Under the pieces are notes generated by a model. It was not told the DNA's origin and made no database searches. It saw only the letters and a list, made by a program, of their open reading frames with translations. A stretch of DNA of 62,713 nucleotides, counting the filler, from Collodictyon triciliatum (lineage: Eukaryota): assembly GCA_043381765.1 (NCBI GenBank). It is 33 parts of 33 records of this genome, joined end to end, with 100 filler letters (N's around TTAATTAATTAA, not from the genome) between each part and the next. Parts side by side here need not be neighbours in the genome. Positions count along the whole stretch, not along the records: positions 21,678 to 23,447 come from JBHJMP010010255.1; 32 more parts are not named here. The stretch is one strand, 5' to 3'. The position numbers were made by a program, and so were the translations under genes. Below are positions 9,415-23,547 of the stretch, one piece after another. The number at the start of each line of letters is the position of its first letter. Within the stretch, counting starts at the first letter, position 1.

Positions 9415-11186
9415 ATCACAGATTCGATTACTTCACTCATGCTTTGAGGTCCTGTCTGACCGATTGTTTGAATTTTTACGACTGTTTCTTTCCCTTTGTA
9501 TTTTGTTTTGTACGCACGCCCAAAGGCTCCCTTTCCAAGATATTCAACCAATTCTACTTGTTCCTTTATCCAGGCATCCTTGAGTTCAACATCGATGGAC
9601 ACTAATTCCAGAACTTTTTGGAATTTTTTTCTAATCGCGTGCCTCTGAACTCTTGTTGACGACCTCTGTGCTATTCCTTGAAACATACAAATAACAAATA
9701 AGTGTCTTTCATACGCAAAAAAAAAAAAAGGCAAATTTTTGAGACTCTTTATTAAAAAATAACAAGACGAATTACCTGGCTCCATGTAAACACGCCCTTG
9801 TTTGACAATCTTAATATCCAAATGGTGTTCTTTCGAGCAGACTGTTAGTTCAGAATCATCTATCCTTGTCGATGTCTGAATATAACCATTCTCATCATGG
9901 AGGCGACAAGTTGGGCATTCTAATCGGCAGTATTGAATAAAGTTCGGTCTTATGGATGCTATCTGTTTTACGAAATGACAAAGAACATCAAATATTGGAA
10001 TGCTGGGGTCACTATCTTCATCTCGAGCTACATCGTACTTTCGAATGTTGATTGAAATATGATTTTGGCTAATTTGGTACAAAACAAGGTAATCGCTTCC
10101 TGGTGTCATCTTCATCTCTTTGGATTCTTTTTCGCATTCAGCTTTCAAATGTACGAGAGCGAGGTCCTTGAAAAAGTAGTCTTCATATTGAGCACCAGCT
10201 GGGGCTTCTTTAGTCAATCTCAGAGTCTGGACGACTATATTGCTTTTATCAGAAATTTGAACCTCTCCACGCGTCACTATTTTTATTGAAGTCTCTGTAA
10301 TACAATTGGACTCTGGTTGTTCATTCCATAAAACAGATAGATTTTGGCAATTCTCCATCAAAGAAGGAAAAGCTATGCATTCCTTGTTAAAGTGAATTCC
10401 TAGTCCAAAATGATCGAATATACCAATAACTGTGTTGTAAACTTTCTCATCCAACTCAATCCTAAGTTCTTTTTCAACTTTTTCTTTTAATCTTGTTAAC
10501 AAGACGATCCCGTTCGATCTTCTTCCGATGCCTCTGAAGCTAAAGACACACCGAAAGATACTGATGAGAAACAGCGGGTCAAGAAAAACGATATTCTTTA
10601 CATCTTCTAATGAAGAGTACCAAACAATTGAACCCAGATCGTGCAAGAATTTAAGGGCGTTTTGACTTTGGTTTACATTCATACTCAGCTGCTTCTCTGC
10701 AAAATCGTATGTATCCCCAATATTCTCATATTTCATGAATTTTCCTTTCGAATCTAAATATTCTTTAAGGCGAACATATGCTTTGGGGACTTCCTGATTC
10801 ATATTGCCCAGTTGCATCATACCCTCATATATTATCTTCTTCAGCCCCGAAATTTTTCTTCCGCTCTTATTACTTACTCTTAAATCCGTATGAATGAATG
10901 TGTGTTGCTGACCCGTTTTCTTTTTTGATTCGTTCTCCTTGATTCGTTTTATTTCTGCCAGCATTTCATCTTTGCACTCTCGTTTTTGGCAATCTTTGTG
11001 TGTTCCAGCGATTATAATTTTCGAGCCAGGCGCAAAATCGTCAAGCATTTTTATCCAGCGCGCAAGATTGTTCCTTTCTTTACCTTGGTCAAGTCTGTAC
11101 AAAATCAAAACAAGTGCACCTGATGATAAAAAGAACGGATGTGTGACTTGAAATTCTTCTTGTCCACCAAAGTCCCATATCCTCAT
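9415..11186 (-). CDS. Roco protein fragment: Roc GTPase C-half, COR domain, start of kinase domain
   Basis: IWDFGGQEEF..THPFFLS (G3), GTHKD (G4), VSNKSG (G5); COR ALKFLHDLGSIVWY..VFLDP; kinase LGKGAFGRAY..VVK. Likely in-frame 99-bp GT-AG intron at 9775-9677. Confidence 0.9.
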
Positions 11187-11287
11187 GNNNNNNNNNNNNN
11201 NNNNNNNNNNNNNNNNNNNNNNNNNNNNNNNTTAATTAATTAANNNNNNNNNNNNNNNNNNNNNNNNNNNNNNNNNNNNNNNNNNNN

Positions 11288-14089
11288 AGCCGCATGAACT
11301 TTGGATATGCTGTTTCTATTACAGATGACTATGCAATTGTCAGTGCACCTTTCGAAAAAATAGAGGGTTTGGATAAAGCCGGCGCAGTATACCTTTTCAT
11401 TCTATCAAAAGCTGGCATGTGGATTCAGACTCAGCGCATTGAAATGTCGAATCCATATCAGAACGCACAATTTGGTACGGCTGTAGCAGCTATATCCACC
11501 AATGCTGTGATTGGATGTGATAGATGCTCTCTCGATTCCCCCAACAATTATTTTGGCGCTATTTTCATCTATAATCGCATAGGCAACCAACTCTTTTTGC
11601 AGACAAGAATAAATGGAGGTGGATCGAATCAGTTATTCGGCAAGGCAGTTTATTTTGACACTGGCAAGGTAAAGGTCCTGTCAGGGGTAGTTCAAAACAA
11701 CACTTTCACGTACTCATGGGATGGCGTACTCTGGAAACAAGAAGCCTCCAGCAGCTCTGAAAAAGCCTCGTTAATGGTGCTAACTTCCTCTTACAAAATT
11801 ACTGGTGACCCAAACAACAATAGGGCAAGCATAGAAGCCAATTTAGACTTCATTTTGCGTAAGACATACTTAAGTGATAGAGGTACTCTTTATTATTCAC
11901 TATATAATAGAATCTACGCACACGTTAATTTATGATTGTAATATAACAGTAACCAAAATAAGTTGAAAGGAAGAATAATAAAAAAAATAACAGTAACCAA
12001 AATCATGAACGCCTGAAAGGTACACCTGAATTACCCAGGACACGTTCTCGTATTCGCAATCACACGAGCCCAAATAATCAAAAAAATTTGTCTTACGGGT
12101 CTAAACGGCTGCATACTTTAACAGAGTGCTCTGAAAACGACCAACCTCACGTTTATGTCGCATGTTCCATAATCGATGTATTGGAACCCCTAATAAAAAC
12201 AAAAAATTACGCGTAAGTTTTTTATACTTGTTTGTTTGTCAATCTAAGCGACTATTTAATTCAGAAATAAAACCAAGCAAATCTATATACTGGTTAAAAG
12301 AAATTGTTTTTTTGGTCACATTATAATTTTTCCTCTATTTCATCTCTTCTTACAACACAAAGGAACGCAACACTGGAAATAATTCATCTCTCCGTGATTC
12401 TCAACGATGAAATCGGAACTACAAATGGTCTTGTCTAACATATTTTCCATGAATACTTAGGAGATGTTTCATTCACTCAGAATCCTGCATGATGATAACT
12501 AGTATTTTTTTTTTTTTTTACTTTTTTATTAATGTAAGAATTTTAGACTCTGCTGGGAGTAAATCGCGCTTGGAATCAAGGATTAAGATGAGTAACCATC
12601 TCAAGGAGTCAGCATTGCACCGATTTGACGTGGAAACATCTCAACAACCGACTTTACTAAACCTGATATTAGCAGGGAAATATTTATACTTCGAGCTTAA
12701 TGGTTTCAATACTACTAGTATTGCTACTGGTTGTGAAAACATACAAATTATGGCTTCTTTTGGTTCAAATGAAGGATTAAATCCTCCAGAAGCTGCAGTA
12801 CATATATTTAATTATATGATGATGATGATGATGATGTTATTTTACTAGCACAAAAACATTTCCGTTGAAGCCTAACTAAAAATAATAGGAAAATCTAATG
12901 GTGACCTCGTCGAACATAACATCATACGCGCTAAAAATCAATGGATATTGCGACCTTAAAGGTATCAACAATTTGATATCTCAAGGTCTTCTGAAATCCT
13001 CCGAAGGAGCCCCGACCCTCGCTGTAACTAGCACGGGTGGCATCTACATCGAAAAGAGTAAGAATTCTGTGGAGATTAGTGCCCTTCTATGTACATCAAG
13101 TCTCATTTGCTGAATCTTGCGAAATATTAATGTGTATAATAGCAGGAGGTTGATATGAGTTTAGTCACCTTTGGTACCTACTTATTCGCCTAAATCATCT
13201 CCAGCAAATATGAGCAATGTGAGCAAGATGATTCATTTCGGAGAAAACATAATGGTAGAAATTGAAAACATCGACACTTTTTCTCCAAATGCAAGCGCCA
13301 TTATTTTGCAAGTTATAGTTTCCTATGTGAACTCAAACATAATGAATGGAACAAGTAGCTTTGATAGGTTAGTGAAGTTCATGAAAGAAAAAAATTCCTC
13401 CGAAAATACCTAATTTCAAGAACTTCTTGCCTTAATATCTGTGTAACTGCTGAATAGTTCCGTTATATCGCCGATTGTTACAGTTGAGATATCTGGAGAT
13501 GATCGCCAATCCATCAAATTTCCCTCATCTAAGCTAATAGTTACGATTACGTTCACGGGGAAAGATTCATATGTCCCCCATGACTGTATTTTTATTTCAT
13601 AATACAACTCGAAATATTTACTATAGGAGAGCCAAATTTATGCATGAAGTCTTATATTTTAACCCAAAAACTTAGTAAATCAATTTTATTTTTATTTTTG
13701 TATGATTACTTACAGCGATTCGTAAACCTGGAAGCACGTTCATGTGCGAAGGTAATTTCCAACCTGTCGTTTGCATACATTCCATTCCAACTTGCAAATC
13801 ATGGAATGCAAGCTCCAAATGGTGGGAGGACGGTGGAATCAGTTACCATAGTACAAAAAACGTGGAGAAGGGATATTATCAGGCCAAATGTAGTAGCGTG
13901 CAATTGGTATGAAATATGATTTGTGGACAATTTTTTATATTATCATCATTTTGGATGTGCTATAGTCAATAATCTTTACATCGACACCATATAATATATT
14001 TTGTATACTGGAGTCAATTAAGGAATTACATGTTACAGTCGGATTTTTCCATATACCTCGAGGCAACTGAACCATCTCCTGAATGTACC
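11288..14089 (+). CDS. FG-GAP repeat (integrin-alpha-like propeller) large protein, partial, multi-exon
   Basis: NFGYAVSI..AIVSAPFE..AGAVYLF, QFGTAVA..GAIFIY and LFGKAV repeats at 11294-11860; downstream exons to ~13900 unassigned. Confidence 0.7.
11943..12003 (+). mobile_element. Ultra-short retroposed insert (LINE tail family B) with 17-bp TSD
   Basis: ATAACAGTAACCAAAAT (11943-11959) + AAGTTGAAAGGAAGAATAATAAAAAAA + ATAACAGTAACCAAAAT (11987-12003). Confidence 0.8.
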
Positions 14090-21677: not shown

Positions 21678-22695
21678 GATTATTATATTGAGATTTTGAA
21701 TTTGAAATACCTTTCTTTTCAAACAATAATGTCACTGCCAACTCGTCTGTTTGTATCATGTATTTAAAATTCTAATATCTTTGATTAAAGAACCTCTTCT
21801 TAATTTCAAAATAATCATTCAATAGTGTTTCTTTGCATCCTGATATATTCTTCAGTAATGATGTTTTTCCAGATAATACTAATAGATATATCAAACATGT
21901 GGTATCTAGAGTAACATGACACGGTATATTGTTAGTTCTTATAGAGATTGGTCGAAACATTTTGGTTCCAATGTCCCCCAAAATGCGATTCATGTAAGTC
22001 AGACACTGAATGTACTTATTTGGATTGACTTTGACATCACATTCGATACCGTTTACAATATCTCTGGGAATGATATGATGCAAATGCGTTGTAGCCCATT
22101 CTTTGTATATTTCCGGCATTCCAAGTTTCTTGAAGATGGCTTTTTTTCACTTTCGTAGCTCTGGCTTTTTAATTGCTTCCGTAATATTCTATCTTTAGGT
22201 ACTGTTTGGTTTATAAAGCGCAGTAACCCCTTCACAAAATGCTCCTTAATGTTATTATGATAAGATGTTAACATTTGCTTCGCCAAGTACGGTAATACAT
22301 GAGACAGTCCAACCATCGGAATGTCTTCTCGGGACAAAAGGAATCGAAAATCATTGAGATAAAAAGCCATCATGCCATCTCTCATTTCTGGTAATTTTTT
22401 TTAATCTTGTGGGTCTGTCTTGTGAAACTACTCCGACTGTCTTTAAAGCGTACAGAAAAACCATTTCATCGATTGTTGGGAGCTGTTGTGATTTCAATAT
22501 GTAACATCTTGCAAACAGATAAGTGTCGGTAACCAAATTATGACACAATAAACTCGTATCGTTAATTTTCTCATAGTCATCCGCATTCTTTATAATAGAC
22601 TTTAGAGATGTCTTCACATTTCGATAGTGTAGTTTTGCAGACTTTAGATTCTCAGACTCAAGACGTTTTCTTTTCTTCGTGTGAAAGTCTTTGTT
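21678..22695 (-). pseudogene. Fanzor-like (eukaryotic/giant-virus TnpB homologue) gene, N-terminal half; frameshifted and cut by the contig end before RuvC
   Basis: Three overlapping intronless ORFs join to KKRKR..YRNVKTSLKSII..INDTSLLCHNLVTDTYLFARCYIL..LPTID..FYLNDF..LSHVLPYLAKQMLTSYHNNIKEHF..RFIN..YKEW..IIP..DVKVNPNKY..MFRPISIRTNNIPCHVTLDTTCL..Y*NFKYMIQTDELAVTLLF. This is the block order I recognise from Fanzor1/NCLDV TnpB-like proteins. Confidence 0.8.
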
Positions 22696-23547
22696 TTACT
22701 TTTCTCCTTTAGAAAACTACCGAGTTTTCAATTTTAATAAGACTTTAGTCAATTAGTCAATAAAAAAAAACTGTATAAAATCAATTCATGTATAATTAAG
22801 CATCTACTGGGACTCTCAAAATGTGCGCTTTGTGGCAAACAAACACACAAAGTTTTTTTTGGAAGTGATTTGAGACAAAACGCTGAGAGCTGACTCGGCG
22901 AGTTCGAAAGGACAGCTGTATAGCCATTGCGACTGAAAGTCAACATATCGGCCCCAAACAACATGATTACCGCCGCAAGTGCGGATAGTATGCTTTTTTT
23001 TGAAACGCATGTTTGGTGGCAGGTTTATGGGGTGTGTTCTGTCTGGCCAAGGCAAGGGCTTGTGTGTCATCTTTGAATTTTAGCGATATTCCATAATGAC
23101 GAAGAAGCTATAAATTGACTATAGGAATAGAATGGGATTATCAAGTATTTTTAACACTAATTATATATACATACCATTATATTTTTCAGGTTGTTTCTTG
23201 GATTCATCGAAGCTCCTGCTTTCGTCAATGCAGATTATTCGATGCTTGTCTGTGCAATAAACTGCTACATATGGGTACACTTTCGTTGTATAAAAAGTGT
23301 TGTGCCTTGAAAGGGATAAAACCAAGTTCGTTACAACATTTGTAATAAAGTTTAATCATTTACAGGCCGAATGCGACCGAAGAGAAACAAACAAACAAAC
23401 AAACAAACATGCAAACAAGCAAACAAGCAAACAAGCAAAAAAAAAAANNNNNNNNNNNNNNNNNNNNNNNNNNNNNNNNNNNNNNNNNNNNTTAATTAAT
23501 TAANNNNNNNNNNNNNNNNNNNNNNNNNNNNNNNNNNNNNNNNNNNN

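Follow-up and report, generated by a model that had tools for sequence, protein, structure and literature searches.

Which gene do the broken, overlapping reading frames at the edge of one short protist contig come from, and what has become of it? The contig (positions 21678-23447) is one of 33, each of ~1.77 kb, that are joined with N spacers in the window, the 62,713-nucleotide stretch of Collodictyon triciliatum DNA analysed here. We propose that the minus strand of 21679-22695 is very probably a Fanzor1 pseudogene of which the 5' half is present, lying in a diverged multi-copy repeat. Fanzor1 proteins are the eukaryotic and giant-virus descendants of TnpB; they are transposon-borne, omegaRNA-guided RuvC endonucleases that cut double-stranded DNA beside a short TAM and, by analogy with TnpB, may help their own transposon persist. 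The part preserved here would comprise the basic tail at the N terminus, REC, and the start of WED as far as the TDG block. RuvC-I/II/III and the TNB zinc finger, which form the catalytic half, and the omegaRNA would lie past 21678, where the contig ends. A DNA transposon with Fanzor1 as its cargo, the most likely carrier, may have left many decaying copies, and the half missing from this one was presumably once present.

Three overlapping stop-free pieces, designated A, B and C, together hold ~339 codons on the minus strand between 22695 and 21679 (Table 1), and a 31-codon tail beyond the TAG ends with the contig at 21679. Residues 2-337 of P0002, an intact relative, are colinear with 22674-21691 and leave no intron-sized gap, in agreement with the earlier note, which had described three overlapping intronless ORFs that join into ~330 aa. 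Piece C carries the block F-R-P-I-S-I-R-T-N-N-I-P-C-H-V-T-L-D-T. The contig stops at an N44-TTAATTAATTAA-N44 spacer, so that sequence further downstream is invisible, which is also where the earlier note had placed RuvC and the omegaRNA; neither a second copy nor a RuvC half was found elsewhere in the window.

Table 1. Features of the Fanzor1-derived contig, in coordinates of the window.
Feature	Position	Strand	Basis or remark
Whole contig, 1770 bp, N spacers on both sides	21678..23447	.	One copy of a multi-copy repeat
(CAAA)n-like microsatellite	23389..23447	.	Sequence; assembly broke here
Upstream, apparently non-coding part of repeat unit	22696..23388	.	Cover by sibling contigs
Piece A ORF, 114 codons	22354-22695	-	Stop-free frame
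Piece A, N-terminal REC-region helices, frame 1	22403..22695	-	hhalign and hmmsearch against family profile
ACG where start codon ATG is expected	22678..22680	-	Aligned to Met1 of P0007
Basic cluster K-K-R-K-R, candidate nuclear localisation signal	22663..22677	-	Sequence
T8 run (A8 on coding strand), +1 frame move from A to B	22395..22402	-	Pieces A and B abut
Piece B ORF, 115 codons	22056-22400	-	Stop-free frame
Piece B, REC region with Y-H-N-N-I-K-E-H-F block	22191..22394	-	PDB phmmer, hhalign
1-base deletion, -1 frameshift, between the two bases	22190..22191	-	P0003, P0158, sibling contigs
In-frame TGA, in T7 run region	22147..22149	-	Leu in P0003, Trp in P0158
Piece C, 124 codons, REC end and WED start	21775..22146	-	phmmer, hhalign, AF2/Foldseek
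In-frame TAG	21772..21774	-	Aligned to Tyr in P0001 and P0002
WED-domain 'TDG' block, F-K-Y-M-I-Q-T-D-E-L-A-V-T-L-L-F	21721..21768	-	Family alignment A1
Final 14 codons ahead of contig end	21679..21720	-	Aligned relatives

The family to which these pieces belong was collected with piece C alone, pieces A and B being left out. A phmmer search of 1.84 billion representatives returned 493 matches at E<=1e-3, 81 of them at <=1e-10 (best 6.5e-46), and 82 of the best 150 of these 493 are at least 550 aa long, with piece C at about residues 180-350. Against profile A1, made of 40 full-length homologues, hhalign places piece A at columns 9-82 (E 8.9e-13), piece B at 94-161 (E 7.1e-13) and piece C at 195-337 (E 1.3e-33), such that the pieces are colinear and cover the family's N-terminal ~340 positions. 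An HMM of the 40 homologues was run against every six-frame fragment of 25 aa or more in the window, 1553 in total, and matched four only, all on contig 21678-23447 and in order (7-84, E 3.5e-14; 94-173, E 7e-16; 189-306, E 2.7e-37; 309-339, E 2.6e-5). At E<=1e-3 the profile matches exactly three distinct PDB sequences, all of them Fanzor1, namely SpuFz1 (E 1.9e-100, 340 bits), PpFz1 (8.2e-96) and GtFz1 (2.3e-77), and the match to SpuFz1 runs end to end (A1 11-605 to chain 415-1028). The earlier note's identification of a Fanzor is thus upheld, both by the matches of A, B and C to the family profile and by the profile's exclusive match to Fanzor1 in the PDB.

The catalytic half of the family can be followed in the homologues. 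The catalytic residues of SpuFz1 are D383, E541 and D606 (PMC11423790), and at these columns, located by hand count along the A1-SpuFz1 alignment, the 40 homologues have D in 40, E in 37 and D in 35 (plus one N). The earlier note had named a hit to an unrelated family, or homologues lacking RuvC, as fatal to its reading, and neither occurred. A loose motif, DP[GN]..[ED]x[TS][TS]..R[DN]x[NS], is found in 68 of the 82 long matches and a strict version in 52; DPG and alternative-Glu motifs are among the published Fanzor1 signatures (PMC10530073). PMC3627910 gives the pattern D-x(125,275)-[TS][TS]-x-x-C4-x(5,50)-RD, within which a TNB/OrfB zinc finger lies between RuvC-II and RuvC-III. T533, S534 and R580 are each at least 90% conserved in the homologues, Cys occupies the zinc-finger Cys columns in just 19-21 of the 40, and PF07282 (TNB) appears below its cut-off in 3 of the 10 homologues of one scan and 1 of the 4 of another. 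Neither Pfam OrfB_IS605 nor HTH_OrfB matched the pieces or the scanned homologues, and Pfam gave only chance-level values on pieces A, B and C (SLD5_C 0.15, TcaA_2nd 0.17); the N-terminal half of Fanzor1 is therefore recognisable from sequence where the Pfam copy used is blind.

Direct comparisons of the pieces with solved structures are weaker and local. Piece B is best matched in the PDB by Guillardia theta Fanzor1 (GtFz1, 9CER; E 6e-4) in its REC helix block and then by SpuFz1 (0.27), and piece C by Parasitella parasitica Fanzor1 (PpFz1, 9CF0; E 0.087) in I-P-C-x-x-T-x-D and T-D-G-x-x-V-S-x-L, while the best PDB matches of piece A are unrelated proteins (E>=0.17) and this piece matches the family profile only. 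PpFz1 has an additional domain inserted in RuvC, and the triad of GtFz1 is D-E-N (PMC11423790). An AF2 model of piece C (pLDDT 89.2) has SpuFz or PpFz chains as its top 6 of 53 Foldseek matches in the PDB (probability 0.94-1.00), with none at E<=0.001, TM 0.33-0.41, rmsd 10-13 A and a fold-alignment identity to solved Fanzor1 proteins of 15-18%, and this fold search with a predicted model weakly supports Fanzor1 REC/WED homology. When the ESM Atlas was queried with piece C, the matches were small hypothetical proteins unrelated to it, with scores of at most 0.90, and they were discarded.

Two of the motifs reported earlier were found in place. The first, the basic cluster K-K-R-K-R near the N terminus, may act as a nuclear localisation signal; N-terminal NLSs have been shown in Fanzors (PMC10530073), and the nearest full-length relatives P0002, P0004 and P0007 begin with similar basic runs; three or more consecutive K/R within the first 30 residues occur in just 14 of the 82 long matches. 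The second is the F...I.TDG block, proposed as a Fanzor1 sign, and PMC10711439 indeed names the 'characteristic TDG motif' in WED as a Fanzor1 hallmark. In this copy it reads T-D-E (21742-21750), T and D being kept and G replaced by E, whereas the family alignment A1 has T in 40 of 40, D in 36 of 40 and G in 36 of 40, and never E. The third codon is GAC (Asp) in sibling contigs from runs X1, X10 and X2, via 21742 C>G. The TDE block fits descent from the Fanzor1 family together with loss of function. A G-x-D-P-G-K motif lies ~50 residues past the TDG block in P0001, P0002, P0004 and P0007, and by this spacing RuvC-I would begin ~35-50 codons beyond the contig end. Because no defining catalytic part lies on the contig, the putative Fanzor1 assignment is drawn from the N-terminal half only.

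The contig is one copy out of a diverged multi-copy repeat family, and the ~700 bp ahead of the gene belong to the repeat as well. Contig pieces from four public runs fall on it in numbers of 273 (X1), 273 (X10), 99 (X2, a freshwater metagenome) and 6 (X3), at 85-99+% likeness, and they cover 29, 29, 27 and 17 of 30 bins, respectively; many diverged copies across the whole contig therefore indicate a repeat. Among the X1 pieces 21 are at >=99%, 66 at 95-99%, 113 at 90-95% and 73 below 90%. Of the 427 base differences and 88 indels in the run comparison, 40 and 12, respectively, are listed, with 1-19 distinct contigs per listed position across the four runs. Each of 15 listed runs holds only 5-9% of the contig's sampled 31-mers, and none is recorded as RNA, X1 and X10 being RNA by guess only.

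The closest relatives are in no better condition. P0003, an ORF of 137 codons on a 626-bp contig, and P0158, one of 143 codons on a 740-bp contig, both leave part of their contigs unfilled, and P0001 is a mere fragment of 291 aa although its contig is 11 kb long; decay therefore looks typical of the lineage. No intact close sibling was found in the protein, metagenome and viral-contig searches: the piece C homologue search gave only P0003 and P0158 as near-length proteins and none that are longer, the search for the P0001 locus gave none in metagenome contigs or in viral contigs, and alignment A3 gave one locus at 37% in metagenomes, two at 33% in viral contigs and none in prokaryote genomes. 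The nearest intact full-length relatives, the P0002 group, are 32-38% identical to the window copy.

These intact relatives lie in giant-virus contigs. P0002 occurs at 80-88% identity on four IMG/VR giant-virus contigs, which measure 57-254 kb and include one named GVMAG. A relative at 49% lies on a fifth IMG/VR contig of 67 kb, and GVMAG is likewise the name on the contigs of L007 and L008, which are more distantly related. The contig might thus itself be giant-virus DNA, free or host-integrated, and the relic viral, with no host-resident transposon family, as would also suit the reported abundance of Fanzor1 in giant viruses (PMC10432273) and another contig of the window (36640-38433) that has a GC content of 22% and a DUF5906 domain. 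We regard this origin as unlikely, given that no viral gene was found on the contig, that its GC content of 34.7% does not stand out in the window (mean 36%, sd 5.7), and that the viral proteins are so distant from it. The hundreds of diverged pieces per small run fit a decaying cellular repeat better, as viruses usually carry few near-identical copies of such an element.

The start codon, ACG here, is ATG in the sibling contigs (10 of 10 in X1 and 8 of 8 in X10; plus-strand 22679 G>A). Pieces A and B abut at the T8 run and are together no shorter there than P0002, the exact base being inferred, and this is the homopolymer at which the earlier note had put a first frameshift. Its second, at ~22141-22170, was misplaced: P0003, P0158 and sibling contigs, three of X1 and three of X10 with a C inserted behind 22190, put it at 22190/22191, and with this C restored the frame (codons read by eye) is P-K-D-E-N-I-T as in P0158 and P0003. 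The TAG stands where it had been reported, and the lost start codon and the TGA had been missed. A consensus of X10 loose ends with Leu for this TGA was dropped, its agreement being 0.74 and the length of the A run ambiguous. By the measure of a start codon and an unbroken frame this is not a functional gene, as it has an ACG, two frameshifts, a TGA and a TAG, and with TDE for TDG it is, as supposed, a decayed copy. The copy is dead and unable to make the Fanzor1 protein.

That the gene is instead intact in the organism, its breaks being errors of sequencing or assembly, is very improbable. The assembly is highly fragmented, one shift falls in the T8 run and could be an error, and the TGA abuts a T7 run; yet the ACG, TGA and TAG are base substitutions rather than indels, the deletion at 22190 is outside any homopolymer, two of ten family positions conserved at >=90% are also altered (W to L and G to E), and the closest relatives are fragments as well.

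Among known systems, the pseudogenised gene can be compared with SpuFz1 (PDB 8GKH, 9CEU-9CEZ; PMC10432273, PMC11423790), the whole of which is spanned by the family profile and whose N-x-x-E-H-F REC block, F-x-x-I-P-L-R...I-D-T, TDG and catalytic triad all recur in that profile. SpuFz1 differs in being a fungal, biochemically active enzyme with ~15% fold identity, of which the window copy retains only about the first 340 codons, broken at five places. TnpB and Fanzor2 (IS200/605, IS607) belong to the same superfamily and share the omegaRNA-guided RuvC nuclease mechanism, but no TnpB, Fanzor2 or Cas12 chain matches the family profile at E<=1e-3. Tc1/mariner-type Fanzor1 elements of giant viruses and protists (for example PGv-1 and PUl-1; Bao and Jurka, 2013, PMC3627910) resemble the P0002 group in architecture, the P0002-group genes lying ~320 bp from a divergent DDE_3 plus HTH transposase of Tc1/mariner type among viral flanking genes that vary. 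Their viral copies are intact, whereas the window family is high-copy and decayed, with no transposase, TIR or TA duplication found on the contig.

The suggestion of a possibly undescribed family, apart from Fanzor1 and Fanzor2, is not supported and is highly improbable, even though no model in the local Pfam recognises the region and fold-alignment identity to the solved Fanzor1 proteins is low. The full-length profile aligns end to end with SpuFz1, and matches PpFz1 and GtFz1 too, and the family carries DPG, the alternative Glu and the TDG-bearing WED domain that, with an enlarged REC, is Fanzor1-specific (PMC10711439). The ESM-Atlas clusters nearest P0001, with members from Mucoromycota and Nucleocytoviricota, carry the annotation PF26935 (DUF8286) in 55-68% of those members, a hint that the region may already have been catalogued. 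The sequence is an ordinary relic, a further member of Fanzor1 and no new family.

Slippage is known to occur at A8 runs, P0003 and P0158 are sibling ORFs that each begin just past this one as if they shared the break, and the TAG is absent from the 40 listed base differences although its neighbour 21775 is among them. Programmed breaks (transcriptional or ribosomal slippage, or stop reassignment) in an expressed copy are nevertheless scarcely credible, because intact P0002 and L001-L005 cross the region without an A-run shift, slippage leaves the lost ATG and the 22190 deletion unexplained, the two stops align to different residues in relatives, which one reassignment does not fit, and the window has frames of 590 codons (Roc-COR) and 350 codons (NHL) that the standard code leaves open. 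A Mesodinium-type code (TAG = Tyr) was likewise rejected, as the window's long frames are open in the standard code and TGA would still be a stop.

The pseudogenised Fanzor1 copy is of little importance alone, as protists, fungi and giant viruses often carry decayed Fanzor1 genes and its catalytic half and guide RNA are absent. Its uses are modest: it flags a large, diverged repeat family of Fanzor1 in the source organism and in related freshwater plankton, which could be mined for intact members in the search for compact eukaryotic RNA-guided nucleases, and the position of the nearest intact relatives in giant-virus genomes is one data point on virus-host traffic. A tentative and rather doubtful extension is that the window copy, P0003, P0158, P0001 and the hundreds of X1, X10 and X2 pieces are one high-copy Fanzor1 lineage of a freshwater protist, derived from the Tc1/mariner-Fanzor1 elements of giant viruses by virus-to-host transfer, with some active full-length members, each having an omegaRNA and a TAM of its own, perhaps awaiting recovery. 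If so, the shared change of TDG to TDD would mean either a dead master copy amplified by a trans-acting transposase or a Fanzor1 able to do without the hallmark glycine.

Element ends, TIR, TA target-site duplication and transposase were not found on the contig; tblastn for a Tc1/mariner transposase gave none upstream (best E 0.53, on another contig), Pfam gave nothing in 22696-23447 (7 frames, E<=0.1) and neither did Rfam (E<=1), and Rfam on the contig had no match. The only repeats in the upstream part, two inverted and one direct, were weak and were judged to be chance. As these 700 bp are common to the siblings they lie within the repeat unit, and siblings skip 22704-22810..22882 and 23046-23175. 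The microsatellite at the far end has a depth of 0 in all four runs because repeats were skipped in mapping.

We conclude that the earlier note was right in identifying the minus-strand gene on the contig at 21678-23447 as a Fanzor, and that the relic is an ordinary decayed member of the known family Fanzor1. Its three successive frame pieces, A, B and C from N- to C-terminus, were confirmed where that note had placed them. A local Pfam scan of the pieces gave no match, and a word-indexed search for longer proteins with homology to a piece retrieved nothing. In single-sequence searches of the PDB, piece A found no Fanzor (best E 0.17, to an unrelated protein), piece B gave Guillardia theta Fanzor1 (E 6e-4) and then SpuFz1 (0.27), and piece C matched Parasitella parasitica Fanzor1 best (E 0.087), in an alignment spanning the I-P-C-x-x-T-x-D and T-D-G-x-x-V-S-x-L blocks. 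With piece C, phmmer yielded 493 matches at E≤1e-3 among 1.84 billion representative proteins (81 at ≤1e-10, best 6.5e-46); among the best 150 of the 493, 82 reach at least 550 aa, 39 fall between 300 and 549 aa and 29 below that. Piece C corresponds to approximately residues 180-350 of the long homologues (at least 550 aa), and 40 of these 82, selected by length among the top-ranked matches, make up the profile A1. At E≤1e-3 the only PDB sequences that this profile matches are three distinct ones, all Fanzor1 and none from an unrelated family: SpuFz1 (E 1.9e-100, an end-to-end alignment of profile 11-605 with chain 415-1028), PpFz1 (E 8.2e-96) and GtFz1 (E 2.3e-77).

The C-terminal RuvC triad is present in the full-length homologues. 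The catalytic residues of SpuFz1, given as D383, E541 and D606 (PMC11423790), map by a hand count along the alignment to A1 columns in the D-P-G, D-E-x-R-T-S and N-R-D-x-N blocks, where the residues are D (40/40), E (37/40; one R, two gaps) and D (35/40; one N, four gaps), respectively. The DPG block with an alternative glutamate is a RuvC signature of Fanzors (PMC10530073), and the 'TDG' block that the earlier note ascribed to Fanzor1 and NCLDV TnpB-like proteins is described in print as a hallmark of the Fanzor1 WED domain (PMC10711439). A regular expression for the motif order matched 68 (loose) or 52 (strict) of the 82 long homologues. The zinc-finger Cys columns of A1 hold Cys in only 19-21 of 40 sequences, and the Pfam TNB model was sub-threshold in 3/10 and 1/4 of the homologues scanned.

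As A1 was collected with piece C only, the fit of that piece (hhalign E 1.3e-33) follows from how the profile was made. Neither piece A nor piece B went into A1; they match, in the correct order, its columns 9-82 (E 8.9e-13) and 94-161 (E 7.1e-13), and an A1 HMM run over 1553 six-frame fragments of the window (at least 25 aa) gave only four matches, colinear and all within 21678-23447. Residues 2-337 of P0002, an intact homologue of 634 aa, align to 22674-21691 (32% identity), and no intron-sized gap interrupts the alignment. For piece C, a confident AlphaFold2 model (61 homologues, pLDDT 89.2) lends weak fold support to Fanzor1: the best six Foldseek matches in the PDB all belong to SpuFz or PpFz (probability 0.94-1.00, TM 0.33-0.41), at E of 1.8e-3 to 5.3e-2, none ≤0.001, and the next match has E 3.1.

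The REC and WED domains of Fanzor1, parts of which are kept here, recognise the TAM duplex and hold the first guide bases. Guided by an omegaRNA, this RuvC endonuclease cuts double-stranded DNA adjoining the TAM (PMC10432273, PMC11423790), basic NLSs at the N-terminus are frequent among Fanzors (PMC10530073), and Fanzor1 has already been reported from protists and giant viruses (PMC10432273). The closest relatives of the relic are all fragments, namely P0003 (137 codons, on a 626-bp contig), P0158 (143 codons, 740 bp) and P0001 (291 aa, 54-56% identical, on an 11-kb contig), the last of which begins at the Y-H-N-N-I-K-E-H-F block and stops soon after D-P-G-K; an intact close sibling was absent from the metagenome, viral and prokaryote contig collections searched. 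In the ESM-Atlas clusters nearest P0001 (score 0.97-0.98), PF26935 (DUF8286) is carried by 55-68% of members, from Mucoromycota and Nucleocytoviricota, so that the N-terminal half of Fanzor1 may already be covered by a Pfam model; no such match came from the local Pfam copy.

The nearest intact relative is P0002, found at 80-88% identity on four giant-virus IMG/VR contigs of 57-254 kb, with a 49% relative on a fifth IMG/VR contig. At two of these loci (L001, 2641-5905, from a contig named GVMAG, and L003, 2651-5905) the intact 634-aa Fanzor1 lies ~320 bp from a divergent DDE_3 and HTH transposase (Tc1/mariner/IS630-like), the architecture of the Tc1/mariner-Fanzor1 element described by Bao & Jurka (PMC3627910). 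The flanking viral genes are unlike, with ribonucleotide reductase small subunit at one locus and mRNA capping enzyme at the other, as expected of a mobile two-gene element. A giant-virus carrier instead of a host transposon is unlikely for the relic; the viral setting of its nearest intact relative speaks for it, the diverged repeat family to which its own contig belongs speaks against it. The 'possibly undescribed Fanzor family' of the earlier note is very improbable, since A1 runs the length of SpuFz1.

The repeat family was seen in contigs of public sequencing runs aligned to 21678-23447. Run X1 gave 273 Logan contig pieces (21 at ≥99%, 66 at 95-99%, 113 at 90-95% and 73 at <90%), X10 likewise 273, the freshwater metagenome X2 99 (none ≥99%) and the lake metagenome X3 six, covering 29, 29, 27 and 17 of 30 bins. 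This coverage extends over the 700 bp that precede the gene, which makes the entire contig one copy of the family; the runs contain only 5-9% of its 31-mers, so that this very copy may be absent from all of them. Just upstream of the start codon, sibling contigs of X1 and X10 skip or replace 22704 to 22810-22882 and 23046-23175, stretches that this copy gained by insertion or the siblings lost by deletion. In the upstream part neither Pfam, Rfam nor a transposase search gave a signal, and a convincing terminal repeat was not found.

Reading frames, motifs and lesions of the Fanzor1 relic
Feature	Position	Strand	Remark
Piece A	22354-22695	-	stop-free, 114 codons
Piece B	22056-22400	-	stop-free, 115 codons
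Piece C	21775-22146	-	stop-free, 124 codons
K-K-R-K-R	22663-22677	-	
Block F-K-Y-M-I-Q-T-D-E-L-A-V-T-L-L-F	21721-21768	-	
ACG for ATG	22678-22680	-	codon aligned to Met1 of homologue P0007
T8 run	22395-22402		+1 frame shift
1-base deletion	22190/22191		contigs of X1 and X10 and sibling proteins as reference
In-frame TGA	22147-22149	-	in T7 region
In-frame TAG	21772-21774	-	followed by 31-codon tail up to contig end

The 'decayed copy' of the earlier note is borne out by five disabling lesions: the lost start codon, the T8 shift, the single-base deletion, TGA and TAG. The basic motif, T8 run, TAG and final TDE-type block were found as it had described them; the start-codon loss and TGA are additions, and its second frameshift, put at ~22141-22170, lies instead at 22190/22191. 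Siblings P0003 (80-82% identical) and P0158 (72%) read through the former region without a break, with Leu and Trp, respectively, at the TGA. Three contigs of X1 and three of X10 add one base behind 22190 (among the 12 of 88 indels listed), which by eye restores the frame P-K-D-E-N-I-T of these siblings, and all sibling contigs covering the start site (10/10 X1, 8/8 X10) have A at plus-strand 22679 and hence ATG. Two of the ten family positions conserved at ≥90% in the N-terminal half of A1 are altered: in the x-I-W-x-x-x-F block Leu replaces Trp, and in TDG Glu replaces Gly, at a column that has G in 36 sequences, C in two, A and S in one each and E in none. The X1, X10 and X2 siblings have Asp at this codon, via 21742 C>G (among the 40 of 427 base differences listed), which suggests that the glycine was probably lost before this copy diverged. 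We conclude that this copy is a pseudogene fragment without Fanzor1 nuclease function. A sequencing artefact could be suspected at the T8 run; with a lost start codon and two stops beside the shifts, we give it very little credence. A variant genetic code is unlikely, since the stops align to unlike residues (TAG to Tyr, TGA to Leu or Trp) and other contigs of the window contain long frames free of standard-code stops (Roc-COR, 590 codons; NHL repeats, 350 codons). Programmed recoding is scarcely credible.

The window consists of 33 contigs, each ~1.77 kb (one 2.8 kb), with spacers N44-TTAATTAATTAA-N44, and gave zero matches to Rfam (gathering threshold) or ARAGORN. Contig 21678-23447 (1770 bp) has a GC content of 34.7% against a window mean of 36% (sd 5.7), and (GTTT)n/(CAAA)n microsatellites terminate both it and its left neighbour, so the assembly broke at simple repeats. 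On contig 9415-11187 a 590-codon minus-strand frame, continuing past both contig ends, carries Roc (E 5e-12) and COR-A (E 7e-9) and is therefore a ROCO-type GTPase, typical of eukaryotes; frames at 57223-58272 (NHL repeats, E 1e-32) and 11288-11932 (FG-GAP repeat, E 2e-12) are further ordinary eukaryote-like coding fragments. Contig 49754-51519 (GC 54%), with many frames open on both strands, is probably a purine-rich simple repeat because its translation is low-complexity K-R-E-K-R-E. Contig 36640-38433 has only 22% GC, and its minus-strand frame at 36639-37877 (413 codons) matches Pfam DUF5906 (E 4e-15), a domain that many primase-helicases of large DNA viruses and of virophage-like elements carry; viral or mobile DNA may be present in the assembly.
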